A stretch of 64,000 nt of DNA, from NCBI GenBank assembly GCA_963798725.1, contig CAWCUL010000003.1, positions 46,910-110,909 of the forward strand, read 5' to 3'. The DNA comes from an uncultured Actinomycetes bacterium. Its GTDB lineage: Bacteria; Actinomycetota; Thermoleophilia; Gaiellales; Gaiellaceae. This document shows, in pieces, positions 1 to 49,111 of this stretch. Each line of letters opens with the position of its first letter. Positions within the stretch are counted from its first letter, which is position 1. The translations under genes and the position numbers were made by a program. The notes under the pieces were generated by a model. The model was not told where the DNA came from, made no database searches, and saw only the letters and a list, made by a program, of their open reading frames with translations.

Positions 1-2
1 AG

Positions 3-1511
3 CCGGTGCTCGCGATCGTCGGTCAGCAGGCGCGATCGGCGCTCGGGGGCTCCTACCAGCAGGAGGTCGATCTGACGACGCTGTTCAAGGACGTCGCCCA
101 CGAGTACGTCGAGATGGCGACCTCGCCGGAGCAGATGCGCCACCTCGTCGACCGGGCTGTGCGGATCGCCAAGGCAGAGCGAACGGTCACCTGCCTGATC
201 GTCCCGAACGACGTGGCGGGGCTGGAGGCAGTCGAGTCGCCGCCGCGGGAGCACGGGACGATTCATTCGTCGATCGGGTACTCCGCACCGACGGTCGTGC
301 CTGCGGCGGATGACCTGAAGCGCGCTGCCGACGTGCTGAACGAGGGTGAGAAGGTCGCGATGCTCGTCGGCGCGGGCGCGCTCGGCGCCTCCGATGAGGT
401 GGTCGAGGTCGCGGAGCTGCTCGGCGCAGGCGTCGCCAAGGCACTTCTCGGAAAGGCGGCGCTGCCGGACGACCTGCCGTTCGTAACCGGGGCGATCGGC
501 CTGCTCGGGACGAAACCGAGTTGGGACCTGATGGTCGATTGCGACACGCTGCTCATGGTCGGCTCGAGCTTCCCGTACTCGGAGTTCCTGCCGGAGGAAG
601 GTCAGGCACGCGGGGTTCAGATCGATGTCGACGGGCGAATGATCGGCATCCGCTACCCGATGGACGTGCACCTCCTCGGCGATGCGAAGGCCACGCTGCA
701 GGCGCTGATCCCGCTGCTCGAACGCAAGCAGGACCGCGAATGGCGCGGCCAGATCGAGGACGGAGTCGAGGCCTGGTGGAAGCTGATCGAGGAGCGCGCG
801 CTCGAGAGCGCCGACCCGCTCAACCCGCAACTGCTCTTCTACGAGCTCTCGAAGCGGCTTCCCGACGACGCGATACTCACGGCGGATTCCGGCTCGTCGG
901 CGAACTGGTTCGCGCGAGACCTGAGGATCCGCAAGGGGATGATGGCGTCGCTCTCCGGAAACCTCGCAACGATGGGGCCGGGCGTGCCGTATGCGATCGG
1001 GGCCAAGTTCGCGCATCCCGACCGGGTCGTGATCGCGATGGTCGGAGACGGGGCGATGCAGATGAACGGGCTCGCGGAGCTGATCACGATCGGCAAGTAC
1101 TGGCGCCGCTGGTCCGACCCTCGGCTGGTCGTTCTCGTCCTCCACAACGACGACTTGAATCAGGTGACCTGGGAGCAGCGGGCGCTCGAAGGCGATCCGC
1201 GCTACGACGCGTCGCAGGACATCCCGGACTTCCCGTACGCCCGGTACGCCGAGCTGATCGGTCTCGAGGGTATCCGGGTGGACGATCCAGGGGACGTGGC
1301 GTCTGCCTGGGACCGGGCGCTCGCCGCCGACCGTCCCGTCGTCCTCGAGGCGATAACGGACCCGTCCGTGCCGCCGCTGCCCCCGCACATCACGTTCGAG
1401 CAGGCGACGCACTTCGCGCAGGCCGTCCTCGGAGGCGATTCCGATCGGCGCGGGATGATCGTGCAGTCGGTGAAGCAGATGGCGGATCAGCTCGTTCCCG
1501 GGCGCGGGTAG
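3..1511 (+). CDS. Thiamine-pyrophosphate-requiring enzyme, pyruvate oxidase/dehydrogenase (PoxB)-like; 5' end lies outside the window
   Basis: YQQEVDL motif, FAD-domain pattern (LLMVGSSFPY), TPP motif GDGAMQMNG...LHNDDLN; the frame is open to the window edge. Confidence 0.85.
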   Translation, partial: PVLAIVGQQARSALGGSYQQEVDLTTLFKDVAHEYVEMATSPEQMRHLVDRAVRIAKAERTVTCLIVPNDVAGLEAVESPPREHGTIHSSIGYSAPTVVPAADDLKRAADVLNEGEKVAMLVGAGALGASDEVVEVAELLGAGVAKALLGKAALPDDLPFVTGAIGLLGTKPSWDLMVDCDTLLMVGSSFPYSEFLPEEGQARGVQIDVDGRMIGIRYPMDVHLLGDAKATLQALIPLLERKQDREWRGQIEDGVEAWWKLIEERALESADPLNPQLLFYELSKRLPDDAILTADSGSSANWFARDLRIRKGMMASLSGNLATMGPGVPYAIGAKFAHPDRVVIAMVGDGAMQMNGLAELITIGKYWRRWSDPRLVVLVLHNDDLNQVTWEQRALEGDPRYDASQDIPDFPYARYAELIGLEGIRVDDPGDVASAWDRALAADRPVVLEAITDPSVPPLPPHITFEQATHFAQAVLGGDSDRRGMIVQSVKQMADQLVPGRG

Positions 1512-37855: not shown

Positions 37856-38833
37856 TCAGCGACTACCGGCGACCCCACCCCCCGCGTACCGCGGCAGGAT
37901 CTCGGACTCGTAGAAACGGAAGAACCCCTCCTGGTCGGGGCCTACCTGGTGGACGTAGACGTGGGTGTATCCCGCGTCGCGATAGGCGTCGAGCTGCGCG
38001 ACGTGCGCTTCGGGATCGGGCCCGCAGACGACTGCCTCGGCGACGTCGTCCTCGGTGACCATCTCGGCCGCCGCCTCGAAATGCGAGGGAAGCGGCAGCT
38101 CCTGGCCGAGCGTGCCCTTCAGCGCGGCGTTGGGCCACCACTCGTGGGCCGTGCGGCGAGCCTCGTCCTCTCGCTCGGCCCAGCACACGGTCGCCTGGGC
38201 ATAGCGCGGCTTGCCGGCCCCTCCGGCGCCGTCGAATGCGCTCACGAGCTTCGCATCGGGCGCGGTGCCGATCATCCCATCGCCGATCCTGCCGGCGAGC
38301 TCGGCCGCTTCCGGACCCCCGGCCGCGACCATCACGTCGAGAGGTTCCTCCGGGAGCGTGTAGATCCGCGCGTTGTCGACCGTGAAGTGTCGGCCGCGGT
38401 GACTTGTCAGCTCGCCACCCCACAACTCGCGCATCAGGCCGACGGCCTCCTCGAGCATCTCGCGCCTGATCTCCGTCGCCGGCCACCGCTGCCCGACGAC
38501 ATGCTCGTTCAGGTTCTCGCCCGTTCCGACGCCGAGGAAGAAGCGACCAGGGAGCATCGAGGCGGCCGTCGCGGCCGCCTGGGCGACGATCGCCGGATGG
38601 ATCCTGATCGTGGGGCAGGTGACGCCTGTCCCGACGACCAGCCGTTTCGTCGCAAGCGCGATCCCCCCGAGCACGCCCCACACGAGCGGGCTCTGGCCCT
38701 GGCGGTCTGTCCACGGATGGAAGTGGTCCGAGACGAGCGCGAAGGTGAACCCGCACTCCTCCGCGCGCGCGGCGTTCCTGACGAGGTCGAGTGGTCGATG
38801 CTCCTCGCTCGAGACGGCGTATCCAAGCTCCAT
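37856..38833 (-). CDS. F420-dependent LLM-class oxidoreductase (G6PDH-like, TIGR03557-type)
   Basis: GYAVSSEEH, SDHFHPW, TGVTCPTIRIHPAIVAQA, GVGTGENLNEH. Confidence 0.88.
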   Translation of the reverse strand: MELGYAVSSEEHRPLDLVRNAARAEECGFTFALVSDHFHPWTDRQGQSPLVWGVLGGIALATKRLVVGTGVTCPTIRIHPAIVAQAAATAASMLPGRFFLGVGTGENLNEHVVGQRWPATEIRREMLEEAVGLMRELWGGELTSHRGRHFTVDNARIYTLPEEPLDVMVAAGGPEAAELAGRIGDGMIGTAPDAKLVSAFDGAGGAGKPRYAQATVCWAEREDEARRTAHEWWPNAALKGTLGQELPLPSHFEAAAEMVTEDDVAEAVVCGPDPEAHVAQLDAYRDAGYTHVYVHQVGPDQEGFFRFYESEILPRYAGGGVAGSR

Positions 38834-38935
38834 GTCAATCCCCTCCGGGTGGCCCTTGCTCCGCGTAGTGTCGGACGCGGGTCTCCCCCGCCCGCGTGAC
38901 GGGTAAACACGTCTGCGTCGAGGCGGGCTCGTCGC

Positions 38936-38989
38936 CCCGCCTCGACCGACGTTTGGGAGCTGCCCGCCTCGACCGACGTTTGGGAGCTG
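38936..38989. repeat. Exact 27-bp tandem duplication in a divergent intergenic region
   Basis: CCCGCCTCGACCGACGTTTGGGAGCTG x2. Confidence 0.9.
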
Positions 38990-39004
38990 AGAGGGAACGG
39001 GTAC
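38978..39004 (+). promoter_or_regulatory. SigF/SigB-type promoter GTTT-N17-GGGTAC
   Basis: Matches a motif that recurs across the island. Confidence 0.6.
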
Positions 39005-39037
39005 CGACCTCCAGAGCCGACAACGAAGGGAGACCTC

Positions 39038-39265
39038 GTGCCCGACAAGCGACCCAGCGTGAAGAACGAGAAGCAGTACGAGGCCCTGAAGGACAAGGGC
39101 ATGTCGAAGGAGCGCGCAGCGAGAATCGCGAACTCCCCCGGCGCCTCGAGCCGCGGCGGCAAGAAGTCCGGCTCGGGAGGGAGCTCGCACCAGGGCGGCA
39201 CGACGGCGCAGAAGAAGGCGGCTGGCCGGAAGGGCGGCAGGGCGACCGCCCGAAAGCGCTCGTAG
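39038..39265 (+). CDS. Small basic protein (DUF7218-like)
   Basis: PSVKNEKQYEALKDKGMSKERAARIANS; Lys/Gly-rich tail. Confidence 0.8.
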   Translation: MPDKRPSVKNEKQYEALKDKGMSKERAARIANSPGASSRGGKKSGSGGSSHQGGTTAQKKAAGRKGGRATARKRS

Positions 39266-39325
39266 GCGACTAGACGGGCGCCTGCTCGGGCCTGCGCGCC
39301 GCGCGCCCCGGCGAAGCGCCTCCGC

Positions 39326-39604
39326 TCACCTCGAGCGACGTAACGCCTGGATCAGCTCCGATTTTCCCATCTTGGATCGGCCACGGATGTTGCGCTCCTG
39401 GGCGAGGCGGTAGAGCTCCTCGCGATTCCGGTCCTCGAAGGAGTGGCCGCTCTTGCCGCCTCGCTCCCGTCCGCGACGGGCCTGCTCCAGCAGGTCGCGC
39501 CTCGTCCTCTCGGGCAGGTGTGCGATCGTCCGCTGCTTCGTGGCAGCACGCTGCGCCTTCTTGACATTCTGGCGTGCCGCTTGCCGCTGCTTCGCGGTTG
39601 CCAT
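39326..39604 (-). CDS. Small basic protein with C-terminal Rho-N (HeH)-like motif
   Basis: MATAKQRQAARQNVKKAQ; REELYRLAQERNIRGRSKMGKSELI; RBS AGGAGG. Confidence 0.8.
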   Translation of the reverse strand: MATAKQRQAARQNVKKAQRAATKQRTIAHLPERTRRDLLEQARRGRERGGKSGHSFEDRNREELYRLAQERNIRGRSKMGKSELIQALRRSR

Positions 39605-39636
39605 CCGGCTCCTCCTTTTCCTTGTTCTCCCGCCGT

Positions 39637-39662
39637 GTACCCGATATTCCGGCCTGCCAATC
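39637..39662 (-). promoter_or_regulatory. SigF/SigB-type promoter GATT-N16-GGGTAC
   Basis: Upstream of the gene starting at 39604. Confidence 0.5.
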
Positions 39663-39694
39663 GAGGGCAGCGCGCCGTCGACGGGCGAAAGAAT

Positions 39695-39720
39695 GTTCCC
39701 GGTCGCGCCTCCTCGGGTAC
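39695..39720 (+). promoter_or_regulatory. SigF/SigB-type promoter GTTC-N16-GGGTAC
   Basis: Upstream of udgX. Confidence 0.5.
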
Positions 39721-39803
39721 CGCGAGCAGCTGTGCCGGATCAGGCGCTACCCGAGCCCAAAGCGAGGTTTCGGCGCCCACCCACGGGGCAAGAAGAACGC
39801 GAG

Positions 39804-40829
39804 ATGCCTGCACGCAGCCGCGACGCTCCGCTGCTGGAGGACCTGCGACGCCAGGCGGCCAGGTGCCGACGCTGCGGCCTGTGGCGTAACGCGACCCAGG
39901 TCGTCGTCGGGGAGGGGATGACGCGGGCGCGCGTGATGCTCGTCGGCGAGCAGCCGGGTGACGTCGAGGACCAACAGGGCCGTCCGTTCGTCGGGCCGGC
40001 CGGCGTCCTGCTGCGTCGTGTCGTCCGCGAGGTCGGCTTCGACGAGCGGGACATCTATCTGACGAACGCGGTCAAGCACTTCAAGTGGCGCGCGAAAGGA
40101 AAGCGCCGGATCCACGACACGCCTACCTGGTCGGAGGTCCACGCGTGTGATGTCTGGCTTCGACTCGAGCTCGGCCGCGTCGTCCCCGACGTCGTCGTCT
40201 GCCTTGGAGCGACCGCCGCCCAGGCGCTGCTCGGTCGAGACGCGCGCGTCAACGCCCTTCGCGGGCGCCTTCTCGAGGCCCTCGACATCGCCCCGACCGT
40301 CGTGGTCACGTTCCATCCCTCGGCGGTGCTCCGTGCGGGCGAGCGCCGTGCGCAGCTCCACGAGCAGCTGGTCGACGACCTCCTGCTTGCGCGGTCGGCG
40401 CTGCGGATGAGGGGACGGGGTGTTTCCACGGCGAGCGCGTCGGGTAGCCCAGAGCGACGGACGTTCGAGACCGAAAGGAAGGTCGACATGCCTCCGCGCG
40501 GAGTGAAGAGGGGCAGCAAGCGCGCCCGGCAGTACAAGCACGTCAAGGAGTCGTTGAAAGAGCGGGGGCGTCCCGAGGAGCTCGCCGAGGAAATCGCGGC
40601 CCGGACGGTCAACAAGGAGCGCGCACGGCACGGCGAGGCGCGCGAGTCGTCGAGCCTCTCGCGAGACGACATCTCGTCGGGGCGCCGGGGCGGGATTCGC
40701 TCCCACCGCAAGGCGCCGCGTGGACGTACACGGGACCAGCTCTACGAAGAAGCCAGGCAAAAGGGCATCGAAGGCCGGTCGAAGATGACAAAGGCGGAAC
40801 TCGCGCGAGCCGTAGGCCCGCGCAGGTGA
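39804..40829 (+). CDS. udgX: UdgX-type uracil-DNA glycosylase/binding protein, reading in frame into the downstream small basic protein
   Basis: CRRC, GEQPG, NAVKHFKW...GKRRIH, EVHAC, FHPSAVLR; no stop before ATG 40488. Confidence 0.85.
   Translation: MPARSRDAPLLEDLRRQAARCRRCGLWRNATQVVVGEGMTRARVMLVGEQPGDVEDQQGRPFVGPAGVLLRRVVREVGFDERDIYLTNAVKHFKWRAKGKRRIHDTPTWSEVHACDVWLRLELGRVVPDVVVCLGATAAQALLGRDARVNALRGRLLEALDIAPTVVVTFHPSAVLRAGERRAQLHEQLVDDLLLARSALRMRGRGVSTASASGSPERRTFETERKVDMPPRGVKRGSKRARQYKHVKESLKERGRPEELAEEIAARTVNKERARHGEARESSSLSRDDISSGRRGGIRSHRKAPRGRTRDQLYEEARQKGIEGRSKMTKAELARAVGPRR
40422..40447 (+). promoter_or_regulatory. SigF/SigB-type promoter GTTT-N16-GGGTAG inside the UdgX read-through linker
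   Basis: Followed by RBS GAAAGGAAGG and ATG 40488. Confidence 0.6.
40488..40829 (+). CDS. Small basic protein (so-called plasmid stabilization type) with C-terminal Rho-N motif
   Basis: KRARQYKHVKES...AARTVNKERARHGE; TRDQLYEEARQKGIEGRSKMTKAEL; own RBS. Confidence 0.82.
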   Translation: MPPRGVKRGSKRARQYKHVKESLKERGRPEELAEEIAARTVNKERARHGEARESSSLSRDDISSGRRGGIRSHRKAPRGRTRDQLYEEARQKGIEGRSKMTKAELARAVGPRR

Positions 40830-41119
40830 CGGACGGGGAGGAGCAAGCGCTGCTCGGTCTGCCGGTGTGGGCCGCGGGGGTGCAGCTGGGAACGGTTACG
40901 GCAGTATGGGTGGACGCGTCCGACACGGTCCTCGGCGTCGAGGTCTCCACGACGTGGAACCGCTCGACGTACTACCTGCCGCGGCCGGCCGCACTCGTGC
41001 AGGACGGGGTCGTGAGCGCGAGCGCACTGGCATTTCTCTCGACGGCCGAGACGGGCTTCTATGCTGCGCACGGAGCGCGGCGGATTGCGGTTTCCGACGT
41101 TCGCATGGGATATGTTTGA
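40826..41119 (+). CDS. Small hypothetical protein, PRC-barrel-like
   Basis: GTGA overlap; LLGLPV...QLGTVTAVWVD...VLGVEV pattern. Confidence 0.55.
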   Translation: MTDGEEQALLGLPVWAAGVQLGTVTAVWVDASDTVLGVEVSTTWNRSTYYLPRPAALVQDGVVSASALAFLSTAETGFYAAHGARRIAVSDVRMGYV

Positions 41120-41159
41120 AGCGAGCGCGAAGGGGACGGAGGCCGTCGTCGAGAAGGGG

Positions 41160-41531
41160 ATGAGCGAAGCCGGGTCGACCGAGTTCGGAGTCGAGACGAT
41201 CAGCCGGGGCGACCCGACGGCCGTGATCGCGGTTCACGGCCAGGCCGACCTCCATACTGCGCCCGAGCTTCGAACTGCCATCACGGCTGCCCTCGACGGT
41301 GGCGCGACCGGCCTCGTGGTCGACCTGAGCAAGGCGACCTTCATCGACTCGACGACGCTCAGCGTGCTCCTCGGCGCGGTCAAGCGGCTTCGCCCGGCGG
41401 ACGGGAAGGTGAGCATAGTCTGCGGCGACCCGCACATTCGGCGCATCTTCGAGATCACCCTTCTCGACCGGGTCTTCACGATCCAGTCCGACCTCGACGA
41501 CGCGCTCCGCGTCGCCGGCGGACCCGCGTGA
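41160..41531 (+). CDS. STAS domain anti-sigma-factor antagonist (RsbV/SpoIIAA-like)
   Basis: GQADLHTAPEL, VDLSKATFIDSTTLSVL, RIFEITLLD. Confidence 0.9.
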   Translation: MSEAGSTEFGVETISRGDPTAVIAVHGQADLHTAPELRTAITAALDGGATGLVVDLSKATFIDSTTLSVLLGAVKRLRPADGKVSIVCGDPHIRRIFEITLLDRVFTIQSDLDDALRVAGGPA

Positions 41532-41694
41532 CCTCCAAGTCGCGGGGCTGATCGTGAAGGGGACGTCGGCGACACCGGCTCGAAGACGAGGGCCCGGGCC
41601 CGTCGCGGGCGGCTGTCTCGCTGTAGACGGCCGGGCGGCCGAGCAGTGACCGGAGACTGCGTGCCGGGGTCGAACACGCGATCTCGAGCCTGAA

Positions 41695-42696
41695 GTGGCG
41701 CGACGCGGCGGTTGGCGGCGAGTCGGGAGGCGAAGGCCGTTCCGCTACGTCGACTCGCGGGGAGAGCGCATCGTCGACGAGCAGCAGCTCGAGCGGATCG
41801 AGCAACTCGTGATCCCGCCCGCCTGGAGTGAGGTGTGGATCTCGCCCAGGCCCAGGGCAAAGCTCCAGGCGACCGGCGTGGACTCCGCGGGACGTCGCCA
41901 GTACCTGTACCACCACGCCTACAGGGCGGCGCAGGAGCGAGAGAAGTTCGATCGGCTCGTGCGCTTCGCCGAGCTCCTGCCCGACCTGCGGCACCGGGTC
42001 GAAAAGCACCTCGACTTGGGACCGTACGAGCGCGAATGGACGTGCGCGGTCGCCATCACGTTGATCAATCTCGGCTGGTTCCGCGTCGGCTCCGACCGTT
42101 ACGCGCGCACCAGCCGGACCTATGGCATCACGACGCTCACGAAGCGCCACGTGCGGGTGCGCGGATCACGCGTCGCCTTCCGCTTCCGGGCCAAGAATCG
42201 CGCGCGGGTGCGTGCGACTCTGGTCGACGCCGAGCTCGCGGACGCGGTCCGCGCCCTTCTCCGCTACGAGGGTGGCGCGCGCCTGCTGCGCTTCGATCGC
42301 GAGGGCGAGCCCGCCAACCTCACGGCAGCGGCGCTCAACGAGTACATCGTCGAGAACATGGGCGACGGGTTCACGGCAAAGGACTTCCGCACCTGGGGAG
42401 GCACGCTGACGGCCGCCGTGGCCCTCGCCGAGCAGGGGCCGCCCGAATCGGCAGACGACGAGCGACATATCCTCGCCGCGGCGATGCGCCGCGTCGCGGC
42501 CGAGCTCGGGAACACGCCCACGGTTGCGAGGGCGTCGTACGTCAGCCCTGCGGTGATCGACGCCTGGCGGGAAGGCCGAACGCTCGAGCGCTTCTCTCGT
42601 GCGCGACGCGTCTCGGCGCGCGATCCGGGCCTGCGCGGGGATGAGGCGGCGCTTCTTCGCCTGCTCCGCGCGGAGGCGCGTCGCCGGGGTGGCTGA
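41695..42696 (+). CDS. Bacterial DNA topoisomerase IB
   Basis: IPPAWSEVWI, GRRQYLYH, FRVGSDRY, FRAK, KDFRTW, LGNTPTVARASYV (catalytic Tyr). Confidence 0.92.
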   Translation: MARRGGWRRVGRRRPFRYVDSRGERIVDEQQLERIEQLVIPPAWSEVWISPRPRAKLQATGVDSAGRRQYLYHHAYRAAQEREKFDRLVRFAELLPDLRHRVEKHLDLGPYEREWTCAVAITLINLGWFRVGSDRYARTSRTYGITTLTKRHVRVRGSRVAFRFRAKNRARVRATLVDAELADAVRALLRYEGGARLLRFDREGEPANLTAAALNEYIVENMGDGFTAKDFRTWGGTLTAAVALAEQGPPESADDERHILAAAMRRVAAELGNTPTVARASYVSPAVIDAWREGRTLERFSRARRVSARDPGLRGDEAALLRLLRAEARRRGG

Positions 42697-42788
42697 ACGG
42701 TGTTGTCGTCCGCGTGTCGGCTGACGCCACGCCGACACGGAGGCGTCCGGACGATGTGTTCGGGCGATGCGCAACCCTCTCGGTCGCG

Positions 42789-43529
42789 TCAGACCGGGCC
42801 GGCGCGGCTGCGCTCTTCGAGGGCAAGCAGACGTCGCAGCGTGCGCGCGTTCTGAACCGCGTAGCCACACCAGTCGTTGTTGAAGTACGCGAAGACGTCG
42901 CCTTCCGCCGCGCGGATGCGGTCGGCCCACGTGTTGAGCGCGCGGCGGCCGTACAAGCCTTGGTGCGCTCGCCCGTTGTGGAAGCGGACGTACGCCCAGT
43001 CGGTCGTCTGGATCCACGGCGTCGGCGAAGCGGGAGCGCGATCCGCCACGACGAGCGCCGCGCCGTGCTCGGCGAGGAGCCCATAGACGCGCTTCGTGAA
43101 CCAGCTCTCGTGCCGGAGCTCGAAGGCGTGACGACCGGACGGGAGCGATTCGAGGAACGCTGCCAGACGGTCGTCGTCTCGCCGGAACGTCGGTGGCAGC
43201 TGCCAGAGAACAGGCCCCAGCTTCTGCGCCTCGCGAAGCGGCTCGAGTCGCTCGCAGAGCCGGTGCGTTCCGCTGCGGGGGTCGACCAGCCGCCGGACGT
43301 GCGTCAGATACCGGCTCGCCTTGACCGCGAAGCAGAAGCCGGCCGGCGTCGCCCGCGTCCAATTCGCGACCGTCGTCTTCGCCGGGAGACGGTAGAACGT
43401 CGCATTGACCTCGACGGTGTCGAAGCTCTCCGCGTAGAGCTCGAGCCACCGTGAGCTCGACCCCGACGCCGGATAGAGAACGCCACGCCAGTGCTCATAG
43501 CTCCATCCGGAGCATCCGATCCTCACCAT
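42789..43529 (-). CDS. DUF72 (YecE/YunF) family protein
   Basis: RIGCSGWSY, FDTVEVNATFYRLP, LWQLPP, AFELRH, YVRFH, YFNND. Confidence 0.92.
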   Translation of the reverse strand: MVRIGCSGWSYEHWRGVLYPASGSSSRWLELYAESFDTVEVNATFYRLPAKTTVANWTRATPAGFCFAVKASRYLTHVRRLVDPRSGTHRLCERLEPLREAQKLGPVLWQLPPTFRRDDDRLAAFLESLPSGRHAFELRHESWFTKRVYGLLAEHGAALVVADRAPASPTPWIQTTDWAYVRFHNGRAHQGLYGRRALNTWADRIRAAEGDVFAYFNNDWCGYAVQNARTLRRLLALEERSRAGPV

Positions 43530-43668
43530 CCCGAGCTGCATGTCCGGTTTTCCCCGAGTGGAAACGCCAGTCGCCGTCGGCGATGGCGACTCGAAAGGGC
43601 GCGGGTGCGGCCAGACGAGAGAGGGCGCTGACCACGTCGACGCCCCCTCTCGTCCCGCCGCGGGGACC

Positions 43669-44172
43669 TCAGGCTGCGACGGACGCAGCCGATTCGTTGC
43701 TGATGCGCGTGGCGATCTTCTCGACCGTGCCGAGCGCAGCCTTCTCTTCCTTCAGGTTCTCGTCGAGCAGGCCGACCGCCTCGTCCTCCCCCAGGGCCTT
43801 CGCCATCCTGCGCAGGCCCTCGTATGCCGCGATCTCGTAACACTCGGTCCGCGCGGCGGCGCCGAGGTCGACCGAGTCGATCAGGCTGGAGGACGCCTCT
43901 TCGACCAGCTTCGAGTGCTCGGCCACGAGGCCTTCGAAGCCGAGGCATTTCTCCGCGGACGGCTGCGCGCCGATGAGCTCGAACACGTGCTCCACGTTCT
44001 CCACGTGGCCCTTCGTCTCCTCCAGATGATGCTCGAGCGCAGACTTGAGCTCTTCGTCCCGAACTTCGGAGATCAGCTTCGGCAACGCCTCCGCGACGAG
44101 CTTGCGCTCGACGAAGAGGATGTCACCGAGCTCGTGCGTGAACAGCTCACGTGGGGTCGAGATCTCCGACAT
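43669..44172 (-). CDS. yciF: Ferritin-like DUF892/YciF protein
   Basis: HLEETKGHVENVE, KCLGFEGL, ECYEIAAY, NLKEEK; RBS AAAGGAGG. Confidence 0.88.
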   Translation of the reverse strand: MSEISTPRELFTHELGDILFVERKLVAEALPKLISEVRDEELKSALEHHLEETKGHVENVEHVFELIGAQPSAEKCLGFEGLVAEHSKLVEEASSSLIDSVDLGAAARTECYEIAAYEGLRRMAKALGEDEAVGLLDENLKEEKAALGTVEKIATRISNESAASVAA

Positions 44173-44209
44173 GTACGCCTCCTTTACTCGCTTGCCAGTG
44201 ATCCCCGCC

Positions 44210-44235
44210 GTACCCCCGCGGAGGGCAAGCAAAAC
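44210..44235 (-). promoter_or_regulatory. SigF/SigB-type promoter GTTT-N16-GGGTAC upstream of yciF
   Basis: Direct sequence match. Confidence 0.65.
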
Positions 44236-44285
44236 CCGTCTCCCCGTCACGGCACGAGGCGGCCGTGTCTAGGTCGTGTTACGAC

Positions 44286-44311
44286 GTTTCTCGGCACAGG
44301 CTGCCGGGTAC
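44286..44311 (+). promoter_or_regulatory. SigF/SigB-type promoter GTTT-N16-GGGTAC upstream of the small membrane protein
   Basis: Direct sequence match; divergent from the yciF promoter. Confidence 0.65.
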
Positions 44312-44374
44312 CCAGTCTGACGAGCAGGACCCGCTGCCGGGCAAATCTCGTCGTCTGATGAGAGGAGAGACGCG

Positions 44375-44686
44375 GTGAGAAACCAGTGGCTGACAGGCGA
44401 TTGGGTTGTCGACAAGACGAGCGCGCGACAGCGGCGGCGGATCCACTACTGGCTGACGCTGCTCTGGTTCACAGTGGGGTCGGTGGTCTGGGTTGCGCTA
44501 CGCGACGCCCTGTGGTTCGTGGGCTTCATGTCCCTGTACGCAATCTGGATCTCGCATCTCGCAGGATGGGCGGCCGAGACACCGGTTGAGCCGGAGGAGG
44601 CCGACGACGCCGGCTCCGCTCAGGGTGCGACCGCGGGCACCATCACCGATTCGTCTGCGGGCGTCGCGCCGGCTGCCGGCTCGTAG
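44375..44686 (+). CDS. Small membrane protein, unknown function
   Basis: RBS GAGGAG; Trp-rich hydrophobic core IHYWLTLLW...FMSLYAIWISH. Confidence 0.65.
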   Translation: MRNQWLTGDWVVDKTSARQRRRIHYWLTLLWFTVGSVVWVALRDALWFVGFMSLYAIWISHLAGWAAETPVEPEEADDAGSAQGATAGTITDSSAGVAPAAGS

Positions 44687-44698
44687 CGCGAGTCACGT

Positions 44699-47600
44699 CT
44701 AACGGCGGAAGCGCTGCAGACCTAGGAGCGCGACGTCGTCGTGGAGCGCAGCACGGCCGGTGAGGGCCGGCTCGCCGACGAGGGTCGCGAGGAGATGCTC
44801 GAGGAGGTGCTCGACACTTTCTCCGACACGGCCTTCGAGGCTACGCCGAAGCCTCTCGAGTGCATCGTCCAGACCGACCCTGGGACGTTCTACGAGCCCG
44901 TCGGTGTAGAAGATGATCGCGTCGCCGGGCTCGAGCCGGATCTGACCTTCGGCGAATGACGTGTCGGGCCCAACGCCCAGGGGCATGGACTCCCCGCCTC
45001 TCACGAAGCGACTGCGCCCGTTCGCCTCGAGCAGCACGGGCGGTAGATGGCCGGCGATGCAGTATCGAAGATCGCCGCTCGCGGGGTCGAGATCGAACGC
45101 GACGACTGTCGCGAGGAACGACTCGGTCGCCTCGACGAGCGTGTTGATCCGCGAGACGACGGCGGCGGGCGAGAGGCCCTCGAGACTGTGTGCACGCTGA
45201 GCGGTGCGGAGCTGGCCCATCCGCGACGCCGCCAGGACGCCCTTCCCGGCGACGTCGCCGACGCTCCCGCCCAGCCTGCCGTCTGGCCGCTCCACGAGGT
45301 CGTACCAGTCCCCGCCGACGTCGGCCTCGGCGCTCCCGCTGAGATAGCGGACTGCGACCGTGACGTTCTGCGGCACGACGAGTGGGCCCGGCAGGAGCGC
45401 GCGCTGGAGCTCGACCGCGATCCGGTGATCGCGCTCGAAGACCTGGGCGTTGGCGATCGCCTGGGCGCACTGCCTGCCGAGCGTGAGCAGCACCTCGCGC
45501 TCGGCGCCTTCGAGGCGTCGCGGGCCTTCGAAGCTGACGATCAGGACGCCGATCGTCTTTCCGGCGACGCGGAGCGGGACGATGGCCTCGGCTTCGAGAT
45601 GGGGATCGAGAAGGAGCTCCTGTTCCGCGTACGTCGCCTCCATCTCCGCGAGCGACTCGACCCACAGCGGCCGTCCCGTTGCGAAGACCCTGGCGGCGAC
45701 CAGCGGATCGCCGGGGCCGAACCTGCGGTAGAGCGCCTGAAGCTGGTCGCCATAGCCGACCGAGCGAACCGTCTCGAGCGCGTCGTCGCCGGTGGCCAGG
45801 ACGAGCGCGCCGGCCGCACCGTGCAGCTCGGCGACGCCCTGATCGATCACGATCGCGGCGACCTCGTTGACGGTCATCGCACCCCCCAGGAGCTCCGTGA
45901 CGCGTTGCAGCCTGCCGAGGCGGTCCGAGACGACGCGCTCGTTCTCCAGCACTCGCGCGCGGTCGAATGCCTGGGCCGACAGTCGCGCGAATGAGTGCAC
46001 GAGAGCGAGGTCGTCCTCGTCGACCGCATGATCGGCCGGAAAGCTGACGGCGATCGCGCCCTGAGTGACACCGTTCGAGACCAGGGGCGCGATGATCGAC
46101 GGCCGCGCTCCGCGGGGCTCGTCGACGTTCGCAAGCAGAGGGAAGCGCAGCTTGACCTCCGCGGGAGACGCAAATACCAGCGTCTCGGATCGACGGACGG
46201 CCTCGGTGACGGGCACATCCGCGCTCAACGGGATGCTCGCCCAGTGCGCCGTGGTTCGCTCGTCGTAGCCCGCCGACGCGACGAGGTTCAGCTCCTCCCC
46301 GGCCACGAGGTAGGCGAGTATCGCGTCGGCTCGGACCGCCGCCAGCCCGTCGTCGACCACTGCCGCGCCCACCTCGTCTGGCGTGGCCGCGGCCGAGAAG
46401 GCGGCGGTGACGGCCTGCAACCTCCGGGCGACGTCCCGCGCCCGTGCCGTCGCGTCGAGCAGCCGGGCGCGCTCGAGCGCCTGGGTACACAGCGTGATGA
46501 TGGCCTCCGTGAAGGCCCGGTCGTCGGGGTTGAACGCCCGCGATTCGTCGAAGAACGCGACGAGGAAGCCGCGCCCCGATCCCACCGGGAGCGGAAGTGC
46601 ACACAACGACCTCCAGGACGTGTTGGCGAAGACGTCGGCCAGGAGCGGAAACCGTTTCTCGGCCTCTTCCCGGTCCGGCAACCAGACCGCCACCCCGGTT
46701 CGCGCGGCCTGGGGCCCAGGGAGATCGGAATCAAGGGGTACCGTCGTCCACCGGTTGGAGGCATCGTTGGCCGCGTATCCGGCGGTCACCCGGCGCATGA
46801 CCGATTCGCCATCCGGATACGCGATCGAACCGCCGGACGCTCCGATGATCGCGAGACCGTCCTCGATCGCGACCTTGAGGACCTCCTCCGCGGTCGCCGC
46901 GGCCGAGAGCCGGGCGGTGACCTCCTGGAGCGCTTCGGTACGGCGTGCCGACCGGCGCTCGGCTTCCAGGAGGCGCAGCCGCTCGAGGCCGAGGCCGGTC
47001 CGTCGGCCGAGCGCCTCTGCGAGCGCTATGTCCTGTATGTCGAAGCCAAGGGACTTCGCACGCCCGAGGATGAGCAGTGCGATGACTCCTTGCCCCTCGG
47101 ATGTCACCGGGACGATGAGCTCTTCCCCGACCTCCTGAAGCGGAACACGCGTCGTCGACGCGGACCGGATCGCAGCCGAACGAAGGTCGAGCTCGTTGCC
47201 GCTGGCCGTGTGGTGCTCGTGCACGGCGCGGATCAACGGGGCGAGCTCCGGGTCGCGGTGAGCGACCGCGAGGATCGCCGTCGGAGCGCCGCCGGCCACC
47301 TCCTGCACGAGGCACCAGTCCACGACCGCCGACGCCGTGAGCTCACAGAGCCGCTGTAGCGCGACGTCTGCCGAGGTACGAGTGAGCAGCACCTGCGACG
47401 CCCGGGCGACGAAGAGCTCCGTGTCCTCCCTCCGGCGCCGCTCCGTGATGTCCCGCGTTACGCCGACGAGCCGTCCGCCGTCTCCCGGAACGACCTCCGC
47501 GCGCGTCCAGAGCCAACGCAGCGCACCGTCGGGGAAGACGACCCGGAAGTCGAGCTCGTAGCCCACTCCATCCGAACGTGCTCGCCGCACCGCACGATCG

Positions 47601-47878
47601 AGCGATGGCCAGTCGTCGGCATGGACCAGCTCGCGAAAGTCGTCGTAGCCAACCGGCGCCCACCCGCGCGGCCTGCCGTGGAGGGGCCCCAGGCCCGGTG
47701 ACCACGCGATCGTATCCGTCGCAAAGTTCCACTCCCACTCCCCGGTCTGCGTCAGGTCGAGCAGCGCATCGAGACGCTCGCCTGTCTCCCGAGACACGAA
47801 GGCCGCGTCGGCGCTCGGTCTGGTCGGAGGTCTCTCGGGCTGGCGCACCGGGTCGTCACGCGCTGCGGACTGGCTCAT
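44699..47878 (-). CDS. PAS + 4 GAF + SpoIIE/PP2C serine phosphatase (RsbU/RsbP-like)
   Basis: PAS (GEWEWNF...VHADD), repeated GAF units, VGGDWYD, VGDVAGKG, AGHLPP, YTDGLVE, DDVALL. Confidence 0.9.
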   Translation of the reverse strand: MSQSAARDDPVRQPERPPTRPSADAAFVSRETGERLDALLDLTQTGEWEWNFATDTIAWSPGLGPLHGRPRGWAPVGYDDFRELVHADDWPSLDRAVRRARSDGVGYELDFRVVFPDGALRWLWTRAEVVPGDGGRLVGVTRDITERRRREDTELFVARASQVLLTRTSADVALQRLCELTASAVVDWCLVQEVAGGAPTAILAVAHRDPELAPLIRAVHEHHTASGNELDLRSAAIRSASTTRVPLQEVGEELIVPVTSEGQGVIALLILGRAKSLGFDIQDIALAEALGRRTGLGLERLRLLEAERRSARRTEALQEVTARLSAAATAEEVLKVAIEDGLAIIGASGGSIAYPDGESVMRRVTAGYAANDASNRWTTVPLDSDLPGPQAARTGVAVWLPDREEAEKRFPLLADVFANTSWRSLCALPLPVGSGRGFLVAFFDESRAFNPDDRAFTEAIITLCTQALERARLLDATARARDVARRLQAVTAAFSAAATPDEVGAAVVDDGLAAVRADAILAYLVAGEELNLVASAGYDERTTAHWASIPLSADVPVTEAVRRSETLVFASPAEVKLRFPLLANVDEPRGARPSIIAPLVSNGVTQGAIAVSFPADHAVDEDDLALVHSFARLSAQAFDRARVLENERVVSDRLGRLQRVTELLGGAMTVNEVAAIVIDQGVAELHGAAGALVLATGDDALETVRSVGYGDQLQALYRRFGPGDPLVAARVFATGRPLWVESLAEMEATYAEQELLLDPHLEAEAIVPLRVAGKTIGVLIVSFEGPRRLEGAEREVLLTLGRQCAQAIANAQVFERDHRIAVELQRALLPGPLVVPQNVTVAVRYLSGSAEADVGGDWYDLVERPDGRLGGSVGDVAGKGVLAASRMGQLRTAQRAHSLEGLSPAAVVSRINTLVEATESFLATVVAFDLDPASGDLRYCIAGHLPPVLLEANGRSRFVRGGESMPLGVGPDTSFAEGQIRLEPGDAIIFYTDGLVERPRVGLDDALERLRRSLEGRVGESVEHLLEHLLATLVGEPALTGRAALHDDVALLGLQRFRR

Positions 47879-47975
47879 CTGCACCAGTGTGGCGGATGGG
47901 TCCGTCCACTGCCAACTCGAAGGACCGGACGCGACAGAGGAGAAGCGCACCAACTGAAGCAGCTCTGCTTCGGGC

Positions 47976-48650
47976 CTACCGACGACCTCCACCGGAGCGG
48001 GGGGCAGGGCTCGGGCGCTCGTCCCGCTCCTGGCCCCCGCCGAGCAGAAGGCTGCGCGCCGCCTCCTGGAGCGTGGCCGTCAGCCGCCGGTCGGAGAGAC
48101 CGGCTTCGCGGAGCTCGCGAAACGTCTCGTAGCTCGTCAGCACCAGCAGCATGTCGACCGCACCGCGGCGATTCATGCCGACACGAAGTCGGCCGCGACG
48201 CGAGAGATTGTGCGCAAGCCGCTCGAGCTCGTTTCGTCGATCGCCGCGCTGGCGCTCGACGAGCTCTCGGGCGGCCGGGTCGATCGCCGTGACCCCGTAC
48301 AGCTGCTCGAGGATCGGGTCCTCCGATGACCAGAACCCCACCGCGCTCGCGATCGTCTCGGCGAGGGCGTCATCGGCGTCGGGGAGCTCGACGGCCTCCC
48401 GGAGCCTCAGCAGGGTCGGGTTCGCGTCGAACGTGTCGCAGATCGCGTCGACGAGCTCCAGGCGAGAGCCGAAGTGCTGGTAGAGCGTGGCCCGGGCAAT
48501 ACCGGCGCGGTCGGCCACCTCCTCGACGGTCGACTGATGGAACGCACCCTCGGCGAGCAGCGAGCGAACCGCCGCGACGATCCGACCGCGTGTCTCGTCG
48601 GAGCGCTTCGAACGGGTGCGGGCGCGGTAGGACGAAGGGCTCATAGACAT
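47976..48650 (-). CDS. TetR/AcrR family transcriptional regulator
   Basis: STVEEVADRAGIARATLYQHFGSRLEL; start 48650 or 48644. Confidence 0.92.
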   Translation of the reverse strand: MSMSPSSYRARTRSKRSDETRGRIVAAVRSLLAEGAFHQSTVEEVADRAGIARATLYQHFGSRLELVDAICDTFDANPTLLRLREAVELPDADDALAETIASAVGFWSSEDPILEQLYGVTAIDPAARELVERQRGDRRNELERLAHNLSRRGRLRVGMNRRGAVDMLLVLTSYETFRELREAGLSDRRLTATLQEAARSLLLGGGQERDERPSPAPRSGGGRR

Positions 48651-48653
48651 GGA

Positions 48654-48718
48654 GTCTAGACATCATGTCCGGAATATGCTAGAACCCGGCCATGTCTAGA
48701 CACACTGTCTAGACATGG
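48654..48718. promoter_or_regulatory. TetR operator region: three GTCTAGAC palindromes, two forming a 13-bp perfect inverted repeat
   Basis: CCATGTCTAGACA-CAC-TGTCTAGACATGG at 48690-48718; GTCTAGAC at 48654-48661. Confidence 0.8.
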
Positions 48719-48745
48719 TGTCTTGCCACACGAGAGGAGAGTCCG

Positions 48746-49111
48746 ATGCCGAAGGCACGCAAGGAGACCGCTTCGAAGGTCGAGGACGTCGGCGTGATGG
48801 AGGGCCGCTACGAGGAGCTCGGCGGCTATACGGTCGGGTTCGAGTCGTTTCGCGAGGACGTCGATGCGACCCCGCTGTTCAGAGGGCTTCCGGACGACCG
48901 CTGCCAGAGCCCCCACTGGGGCTACGTCATGAAAGGGAACGTCACGTTCCGGTATGCCGACCGTGAGGAGGTCTACGAGGCCGGCGACGCCTACTACGCA
49001 CCGCCCGGACATGTTCCGGTCGTCACCTCGGGCACGGAGATCGTCGAGTTCAGCCCCACGGAAGAGTACGAGCGCACGATGGAGGTGATTGCCGCCAACC
49101 TCGCCGCCTGA
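48746..49111 (+). CDS. Cupin-fold protein
   Basis: CQSPHWGYVMKG, AGDAYYAPPGH; RBS GAGAGGAG. Confidence 0.85.
   Translation: MPKARKETASKVEDVGVMEGRYEELGGYTVGFESFREDVDATPLFRGLPDDRCQSPHWGYVMKGNVTFRYADREEVYEAGDAYYAPPGHVPVVTSGTEIVEFSPTEEYERTMEVIAANLAA

Follow-up and report, generated by a model that had tools for sequence, protein, structure and literature searches.

Gene Content and Predicted Promoter Sites of the Island

We analyzed a 64,000-nt stretch of DNA from an uncultured actinobacterium (hereafter the window), in which a sequence-only reading had described, at about positions 37856–47884, an island of predicted general-stress genes marked by repeated SigF/SigB-type promoters. The window corresponds to C3:46910–110909 of the source genome, G000, which amounts to 3.08 Mb in six contigs with 70% GC and is 96% complete; C1 and C3 denote contigs of G000, the prefixes C1: and C3: mark contig coordinates, and G001 onward are congener genomes. 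For one G000 protein, the nearest named records were metagenome-assembled genomes (MAGs) labelled Gaiellaceae, Gaiellales, Thermoleophilia, Solirubrobacterales or Actinomycetota, which makes the lineage suggested by the earlier reading a reasonable one; the organism appears to be represented by MAGs alone. Genes were called with a home-made caller based on GC content at third codon positions (GC3), according to which ~90% of G000 is coding.

The island is bordered by a Na+/H+ exchanger gene on one side and a TetR gene on the other. Its gene content was as first described, with small basic proteins, UdgX, a YciF-like DUF892 protein, a small membrane protein, a STAS protein and a PAS-GAF-PP2C phosphatase, and we additionally identified an F420-type LLM oxidoreductase, a PRC-barrel-like open reading frame (ORF), a topoisomerase IB and a DUF72 protein. 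The first gene (37856–38833, −) encodes a 325-aa F420-dependent LLM-class oxidoreductase of a G6PD-related family (Pfam Bac_luciferase, 1e-48; TIGR03557, 461 bits, above the cut-off). A promoter-like variant, GTTT-N16-GGGGA (38884–38908, −), lies 51 nt upstream of it, and the LLM orthologue is preceded by GTTT-N16-GGGAA in three congeners, which supports the GGGGA site at the equivalent position in G000. A further variant, GTCT-N16-GGGTA, is present at 38881 (+).

On the plus strand, an exact GTTT-N17-GGGTA motif (38978–39003) stands 35 nt before the start of a gene for a small basic DUF7218 protein of 75 aa (39038–39265, +; Pfam PF23855, 5.9e-16). The −35 GTTT of this promoter lies in a perfect 27-nt tandem duplication (38936–38989, +; two copies of CCCGCCTCGACCGACGTTTGGGAGCTG); the spacing to the −10 is correct from the second copy only. 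The next gene (39326–39604, −) encodes a small basic protein of 92 aa with a Rho_N-like C-terminus (Pfam Rho_N, 6.6e-5, just below the gathering score), and the variant site GATT-N16-GGGTA (39638–39662, −), assigned by position only, lies 34 nt before it. A second variant, GTTC-N16-GGGTA (39695–39719, +), is located 85 nt before the gene for a UdgX-family uracil-DNA binding protein (39804–40409, +; TIGR03914, 242.5 bits, above the cut-off); in G003, the closest relative, GTTT-N16-GGAAA occupies the equivalent place.

An exact GTTT-N16-GGGTA (40422–40446, +) precedes by 42 nt the gene for RhoN113, a second small basic protein with a Rho_N-like C-terminus (113 aa; 40488–40829, +; Pfam Rho_N, 0.0018; 72–83% identity in congeners). 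The udgX frame runs without a stop into this gene, giving a 341-aa fusion frame (39804–40829) that contains the promoter at 40422. Because a udgX stop codon is present just ahead of the equivalent promoter in G003, the read-through in G000 is either genome-specific or an assembly error. The start of a 97-aa PRC-barrel-like ORF (40826–41119, +; Pfam PRC, 0.0022, below the cut-off) overlaps the RhoN113 stop. This ORF, which lies between RhoN113 and the STAS gene, has no motif of its own and gave a tblastn match at only one congener locus, in G012 (49% identity).

The STAS gene (41160–41531, +) encodes a 123-aa anti-sigma-factor antagonist (Pfam STAS, 3.8e-18; TIGR00377, 69.8 bits, cut-off 53.45) whose conserved phosphorylatable serine is Ser64, within a FIDS motif. 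A degenerate GTTT-N13-GGGAT (41090–41112, +) lies 48 nt before it; since exact GGGTA promoters with 15- to 17-nt spacers occur at this position in congeners, the G000 site has probably been weakened. Downstream are genes for a bacterial type IB topoisomerase (TopIB) of 333 aa (41695–42696, +; Pfam Topoisom_I, 2e-29; Top1B_N_bact, 7e-23) and a DUF72 protein of 250 aa (42789–43541, −; Pfam, 4e-72). Two exact GTTT-N16-GGGTA motifs then point away from each other: one (44211–44235, −) stands 39 nt before a gene for a 167-aa DUF892 protein of the YciE/YciF-like ferritin fold (43669–44172, −; Pfam, 1.4e-42), and the other (44286–44310, +) 65 nt before a gene for a 103-aa membrane protein that has two hydrophobic helices and matched no family (44375–44686, +). 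The last gene (44699–47884, −) encodes a 1061-aa phosphatase in which PAS and multiple GAF domains are joined to a SpoIIE-type PP2C domain (Pfam SpoIIE, 2e-43; GAF_2, four matched stretches; PAS_3). The PP2C domain matched PF07228 over the full profile (149 bits), and with DVGGDWYD, GDVAGKG, YTDG and HDD its catalytic, metal-binding Asp motifs are intact.

Spacing and Enrichment of the Motif

The sequence-only reading had placed six sites of the form G[TA]T[TC]-N16/17-GGGTA at 38978(+), 39662(−), 39695(+), 40422(+), 44235(−) and 44286(+), as well as weaker variants. A pattern scan of the window found all six, out of seven matches to this loose pattern in 64 kb, and located the weaker variants as the GTCT, GGGGA and GGGAT sites given above. 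Genome-wide the loose pattern matched 46 times in 3.08 Mb; six of these matches fall within one 5.3-kb span, in the island, and no other 6-kb span of the genome holds more than three. Matches outside the island were mostly intragenic and began with GATC; the informative core is GTTT.

We then compared motif counts against control spacers, which keep composition fixed, and against reversed-pattern controls. When the spacer k in GTTT-Nk-GGGTA was varied from 8 to 30, k = 16 gave 12 matches genome-wide, 10 of them intergenic, vs a mean of ~1.3 for the other values of k. With spacers of 15–17 nt there were 21 matches (14 intergenic), compared with 3–4 matches and no intergenic ones at control spacers. 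Among one-base variants, clear enrichment was seen for the GGGAA −10 only (16 intergenic matches vs 2 at control spacers), and GGGAA is thus a second accepted −10 element beside GGGTA; GGGGA was weakly enriched (8 vs 4). One-mismatch −35 variants showed no enrichment genome-wide when taken as a class (26 intergenic matches vs 24–25 at control spacers).

The working consensus is therefore GTTT-N16(±1)-GGG(T/A)A. In this refined form the motif matched 38 times in the genome, and 30 of the 38 sites are intergenic; 28 sites lie no more than 450 nt, and mostly 8–100 nt, before a start codon on the same strand. The enrichment relative to the rest of the genome that the earlier reading had proposed as a check was evident, with four refined sites in the island where 0.07 would be expected (Poisson P about 9e-7). 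Together, these counts support the motif as a genuine, spacer-specific promoter element of the SigF/SigB type. A general scan of the region for sigma-70 promoters and terminators returned no promoters and four terminator-like sites, compared with 3.3 expected.

A Candidate Cognate Sigma Factor and Switch Proteins on Contig C1

Profile searches found neither a sigma gene nor an RsbW-type kinase gene in the 64-kb window. Elsewhere in G000 a single gene, at C1:936489–937211, scored above the cut-off of the SigB/SigF/SigG family model TIGR02980 (274 bits, cut-off 234). The next-best model for this gene was the mycobacterial-type SigF, and its score on the SigB equivalog model TIGR02941 was 195 bits, below the cut-off of 315, which places its identity at the family level. 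At least seven further sigma-70-family genes in G000 scored 120–140 bits on TIGR02980. An RsbW-type kinase gene (C1:937208–937612) overlaps the sigma stop codon; it matched PF13581 (HATPase_c_2) with 96 bits over C1:937232–937597, and its best NCBIfam matches were RsbW models, below their equivalog cut-offs.

Three STAS genes surround the sigma gene, one of which, at C1:935373, is a paralogue of the island STAS, and the gene preceding the locus encodes a GAF-PP2C-HATPase_c_2 fusion. Ahead of the first STAS gene stands an exact motif, GTTTCCCAATCGCCTCGAACGGGTA, which ends 22 nt from that gene, and a GGGAA-type motif precedes a DUF6458 gene on the far side of the locus. A promoter of this type at the head of the sigma locus, as in SigF/SigB systems, ties the motif to the C1 sigma, so that the cognate factor called for by the earlier reading has been located together with RsbW and STAS genes. 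Immediately ahead of the sigma gene, a 116-aa ORF (C1:936116–936466) matched the N-terminal part of RsbW models only and has no kinase boxes; its position is kept in congeners, and it may encode a non-kinase RsbW paralogue comparable to RsbW3 of Mycobacterium smegmatis.

The sigma cassette is separated from the island by at least 700 kb of contig sequence, as it is from the second promoter cluster described below. Strong SpoIIE-type phosphatases number only two in G000 (the PAS-GAF-PP2C of the island and the GAF-PP2C-kinase fusion at the sigma locus), vs seven or eight STAS genes, and we regard the island PAS-GAF-PP2C as a credible input phosphatase of a partner switch predicted from these domains.

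Motif Counts and Sigma Gene Presence Across 81 Congeners

To compare sigma and motif across species, we used 81 congener genomes, with a high-quality subset of 29 that were ≥90% complete and ≤5% contaminated. The sigma gene was variably present, in 51 of the 81 genomes and 19 of the 29. Across all 81 congeners, sigma-positive genomes contained a mean of 10.5 matches to GTTT-N16-GGGTA (reversed control 1.4), compared with 3.2 in sigma-negative genomes (control 1.8). In genomes at least 90% complete the means were 11.1 and 2.1 (controls 1.6 and 2.0; Mann-Whitney p = 1e-5); as the congeners are related, this and the other cross-genome statistics and p-values overstate independence. Sigma-negative genomes with five or more motif matches were all <80% complete, and the sigma gene may therefore be unassembled in them.

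RhoN113 followed the sigma gene: among complete genomes, 14 of 20 with sigma had it and none of 13 without (Fisher p = 5e-5, with the same caveat of relatedness), and it was otherwise found only in genomes that are incomplete. The direction was the same for DUF7218, with fewer cases. This cross-genus pattern is what a sigma-promoter relationship predicts. As a separate observation, GTTTACGGCGTGGACTACCAGGGTA was identical and present once per genome in G004, G007, G009, G012, G017, G001 and G071, whether or not the sigma gene was there; it probably represents conserved coding DNA whose match to the motif is fortuitous.

Promoter Conservation and Locus Order

We next compared syntenic pieces from ten congeners, in which the island proteins are ~60–80% identical to the G000 versions. 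In this comparison, made along the lines of the synteny check suggested earlier, the motif recurs before the orthologues of RhoN113, island-type STAS, DUF892, DUF7218 and LLM though the genes themselves are shuffled. It was kept upstream of RhoN113 orthologues in most of the congener loci examined and upstream of DUF892 in several congeners. At the scale of the Actinomycetota, 41 of 68 high-GC DUF7218 loci had a sense GGGTA between −110 and −10, where 3.4% would be expected, and only 5 had one in antisense. The strict motif was present upstream of DUF7218 at only 9 of 72 loci across the phylum, the −35 varying more and GGGTA being the conserved part.

For at least nine congeners, we found the sigma cassette within the island itself, where it immediately follows the island-type STAS gene. 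These loci read promoter, RhoN113, promoter, island-type STAS, RsbW-like gene, sigma, RsbW, followed by a convergent STAS and DUF6458 pair with its own promoter and then by a promoter driving LLM and TopIB. Of these loci, only that of G012 gave the tblastn match to the PRC-like ORF noted above. TopIB thus follows LLM downstream of a GGGAA promoter in the congeners, and the PP2C orthologues remain beside the DUF6458/STAS promoter pair. In G000 and G003, the sigma cassette occupies a separate locus downstream of the GAF-PP2C-kinase gene, and the island keeps a STAS paralogue that abuts TopIB. The earlier statement that the island encodes neither sigma factor nor anti-sigma kinase is accordingly correct for the window and does not extend to the genus, and the absence of sigma from the island is a feature of the G000 sub-clade. 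This arrangement suggests that the cassette moved out of its ancestral neighbourhood in G000, and its separate location explains the decayed look of the G000 STAS promoter.

The G000 sigma is 85% identical to that of G003, 70% to those of G008 and G017, and 58–65% to those of most congeners. We considered a foreign replacement of the G000 sigma in view of the 58–65% values and rejected it; since G003 and G008/G017 share the locus arrangement, ordinary sub-clade divergence is the simpler reading. Horizontal transfer of the island was likewise rejected, as GC is 0.68–0.70 throughout, like the flanks, and there is no tRNA in the window. The variable presence across congeners fits gain or loss and does not show transfer, and the region is a regulon cluster without the marks of a recognisable transferred island. 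At three congener loci (L033, L039 and L040, from G012, G018 and G022) an extra CsbD-like gene lies between UdgX and RhoN113, with GTGT-N16-GGGTA ahead of it, inside the 3′ end of udgX.

A Second Cluster and the Wider Predicted Regulon

The island proved to be the smaller of two clusters. The larger, at C3:18–47 kb, ends just before the window and holds 10 sites vs 0.36 expected; jointly the two span ~73 kb and contain 14 of the genome's 38 sites. The earlier proposal of a physically clustered regulon with its own input module stands as regards the clustering and, in the form of a credible input, the PP2C, and does not stand as regards a self-contained island. Genes of the larger cluster encode small membrane peptides, a trehalase-like GH15 enzyme, an MFS transporter, a DUF4440 protein, another STAS protein, a formate dehydrogenase operon, a YdaD-like short-chain dehydrogenase/reductase (SDR), a second DUF892 protein, a CsbD-like protein and an aa3-type oxidase operon. 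Its last member is a pyruvate-oxidase-like thiamine pyrophosphate (TPP) enzyme (NF006129, 1071 bits), whose gene has an exact GTTT-N17-GGGTA at C3:46530, 75 nt before its start and just outside the window, and whose 3′ part occupies window positions 1–1511 (+).

Elsewhere in G000 the motif precedes genes for a Dps-like ferritin, a third DUF892 protein, a PRC-barrel protein, an AHSA1/SRPBCC protein and glmS, and the predicted regulon also contains a PQQ dehydrogenase with a cytochrome c domain. Judged by these families, the wider predicted regulon looks like a set of classic SigB/SigF targets (Dps-like, DUF892, YdaD-like SDR, pyruvate-oxidase-like, CsbD-like, PRC-barrel, AHSA1/SRPBCC and DUF6458, along with small membrane peptides).

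Two side observations concern single loci. The formate-dehydrogenase-like molybdopterin enzyme at C3:29165–32248, downstream of an exact GTTT-N16-GGGTA at C3:28992, is interrupted by an in-frame TGA, at which the first ORF of the operon ends; the TGA follows ...VENQARI, a position at which a selenocysteine would be expected. Next to the island, the divergent region at 48642–48748, between the TetR gene (47976–48644, −) and a gene for a 121-aa protein (48746–49111, +), carries four copies of a TGTCTAGACA-type palindrome and is probably a TetR operator array.

Discussion

We consider it very probable that the promoters clustered in the island are served by the one SigB/SigF/SigG-family (group 3) sigma factor that G000 encodes, and that the island forms a segment of a general-stress or stationary-phase regulon. 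We infer the transcription start sites, the pairings among STAS, PP2C and RsbW proteins and the inducing signal. By analogy with the SigB and SigF systems, and from domain content, free sigma would direct RNA polymerase to GTTT-N16(±1)-GGG(T/A)A, from which short, mostly monocistronic units encoding DUF7218, the two Rho_N-type proteins, DUF892 and the small membrane protein would be transcribed; UdgX, the F420 oxidoreductase and the RhoN113-PRC-STAS unit would probably be sigma-driven likewise. RsbW (C1:937208–937612) would sequester sigma and phosphorylate STAS antagonists at their conserved serine, which is Ser64 in the island protein; unphosphorylated STAS would capture RsbW and so release sigma. 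The likeliest signal-controlled phosphatase to reactivate phosphorylated STAS would be the island PAS-GAF-PP2C, which keeps its Asp motifs and has no promoter motif ahead of it, as would suit a sensor that is present constitutively. The island STAS, as a paralogue of the first gene at the sigma-locus promoter, would add antagonist capacity.

Several observations weigh against this reading. An exact promoter precedes only 4 of the 12 island genes, and the spacer of the STAS site is 13 nt. We sought the motif upstream of TopIB, DUF72 and PP2C in G000 and found none, or in the case of DUF72 none that was convincing, and these three genes may or may not be sigma-dependent in G000. Neither GTTC nor GATT was enriched genome-wide as a −35 variant, so that what speaks for the sites ahead of the 92-aa gene (39662, −) and udgX (39695, +) is position and local context; the original assignment of the sites as SigF/SigB-type promoters thus holds for those that combine GTTT with GGG(T/A)A and is unsupported as a class for these two. 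The one clear exception to the cross-species pattern is G005: in this genome, which is 96% complete, a sigma gene scores above the cut-off and GTTT-N15-17-GGGTA gave three matches vs three in the control; RhoN113, DUF7218 and any DNA match to the island were sought in this genome and not found. Finally, start codons assigned by our gene caller may be off, and the relatedness of the congeners bears on the statistics as described above.

Similar systems are known in other bacteria. The SigB system of Bacillus subtilis uses a sigma factor of the same family, GTTT...GGG(A/T)A promoters, a STAS antagonist, an RsbW kinase and PP2C phosphatases with sensory domains, among them RsbP, which carries a PAS domain. 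SigB targets in B. subtilis include Dps, CsbD, a YdaD-type SDR and the pyruvate oxidase YdaP, and counterparts of all four were found in the G000 regulon. No stressosome of the B. subtilis type (RsbR/S/T) turned up in G000, although no dedicated search was made for one. To our knowledge, the SigB regulon of B. subtilis has not been reported as concentrated in one region. Streptomyces coelicolor has nine SigB homologues (group 3) that cross-recognise GGGTA-type promoters and receive many STAS and PP2C inputs; unlike it, G000 has a single sigma of the family, and hence no cross-talk between paralogues.

The closest parallels are with M. smegmatis. The sequence-only reading had taken GTTT-N15-17-GGGTA for the mycobacterial SigF-type consensus, which agrees with the SigF consensus GTTT-N15-17-GGG(T/A)A defined in M. 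smegmatis, where the GGGAA alternative is included (PMC4694148). In that species a dense block of individually promoted SigF genes, MSMEG_1766-1804, lies beside sigF, and among the genes under SigF control are those for a type I topoisomerase, Dps, an RsbW homologue and a STAS protein (PMC4694148). Its partner-switching system comprises RsfA, RsfB and several RsbW paralogues (RsbW1/2/3), one of them a non-kinase antagonist, and the serine of RsfB is Ser-63 (PMC7693655). G000 shares with M. smegmatis the consensus, autoregulation of the sigma locus, a dense series of genes with promoters of their own, several RsbW paralogues and a STAS serine at a near-identical position (Ser-63 there, Ser64 here). 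It differs in lineage, its nearest records being Gaiellaceae, Gaiellales and Thermoleophilia MAGs, and in that its system is known from sequence alone; its sigma cassette lies far from both clusters, unlike the block beside sigF, and its input would be a PAS-GAF-PP2C, not the two-component RsfSR route. udgX is not listed among SigF targets in the published regulon paper for M. smegmatis, and our literature search turned up neither a paper that connects UdgX to SigF nor one about a SigF-type system in Thermoleophilia. As the clustering of SigF genes in M. smegmatis is already documented, physical clustering of such a regulon is not new.

The sequence-only reading had further specified dormancy or desiccation as the state served by the regulon. 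From the families present, the gene set would fit a general-stress or stationary-phase regulon equally well. It is possible, although we think it unlikely, that the promoters are real and sigma-dependent and that the regulon answers a single particular cue, such as an impairment of respiration or redox state, in place of dormancy, desiccation or general stress. The SigF regulon of M. smegmatis is strongly induced on loss of the aa3 oxidase (PMC7693655), the G000 regulon holds the formate dehydrogenase, the aa3-type oxidase, the PQQ dehydrogenase with cytochrome c and the pyruvate-oxidase-like enzyme, and the PAS and GAF domains of the island phosphatase are often redox or small-ligand sensors. 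However, many of the targets are generic protectants (Dps-like ferritin, DUF892, CsbD-like and small basic nucleic-acid binders), and a signal is not identifiable from sequence alone.

The clustering itself could be a passive remnant of the sigma-locus neighbourhood combined with local duplications, with no selected island and with the island STAS and PP2C not acting on sigma. The sigma cassette does lie within the same neighbourhood in at least nine congeners, the island STAS duplicates a sigma-locus STAS, GC does not deviate, neither a tRNA nor a mobile element marks a boundary, and the PP2C, having no motif, could serve another pathway. We nevertheless find this doubtful, because there are just two strong SpoIIE-type phosphatases to serve seven or eight STAS proteins and a single RsbW, because PP2C orthologues stay beside the DUF6458/STAS promoter pair in congeners, and because the sigma neighbourhood would not by itself readily account for a second cluster of 10 sites at a distance of 40 kb. 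It is very improbable that the motif is instead the operator of a DNA-binding regulator or the promoter of another sigma, its link to the SigB/F-type sigma being coincidental co-inheritance: the seven or more further sigma-70-family genes at 120–140 bits, a cross-species association confounded by phylogeny and G005, with sigma and without enrichment, would allow this, but the element is bipartite and oriented, keeps a strict 16 ± 1 spacer, sits 8–100 nt before start codons, is identical to the experimentally defined SigF consensus down to the T/A alternative in the −10 (PMC4694148), and precedes the sigma operon itself in G000 and congeners.

Returning to the promoter cluster read by one sigma, we find no new regulatory principle in it, and the kind of system is already known from M. 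smegmatis. What the analysis provides is a regulon map for a soil actinobacterial lineage without genetics, drawn from sequence and checked across species, that comprises ~30 promoters, one sigma, the likely switch proteins and a sensor phosphatase. It gives a regulatory context to families of no known role, namely DUF7218, the two Rho_N-tailed proteins, DUF892, DUF6458 and the small membrane peptides, and would count UdgX and topoisomerase IB as stress-induced. The comparison across the genus, where enrichment was gone if no sigma gene was found, may serve as a template for predicted regulons in other uncultured organisms. In the genus, sigma and effectors were found together or not at all, which is of some evolutionary interest, as is the displacement of the sigma cassette in G000. 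We put forward, as a tentative and rather speculative idea, that the SigF-type system as a whole, with the sigma, the switch, the ~30 promoters and the effectors DUF7218, Rho_N, UdgX and TopIB, would be a dispensable module, seen in ~60% of the congeners searched and, effectors included, not found in the others. Much of it would be packed near the sigma locus, and such clustering would allow an entire programme of nucleoid protection and stress response to be acquired or shed in few steps.

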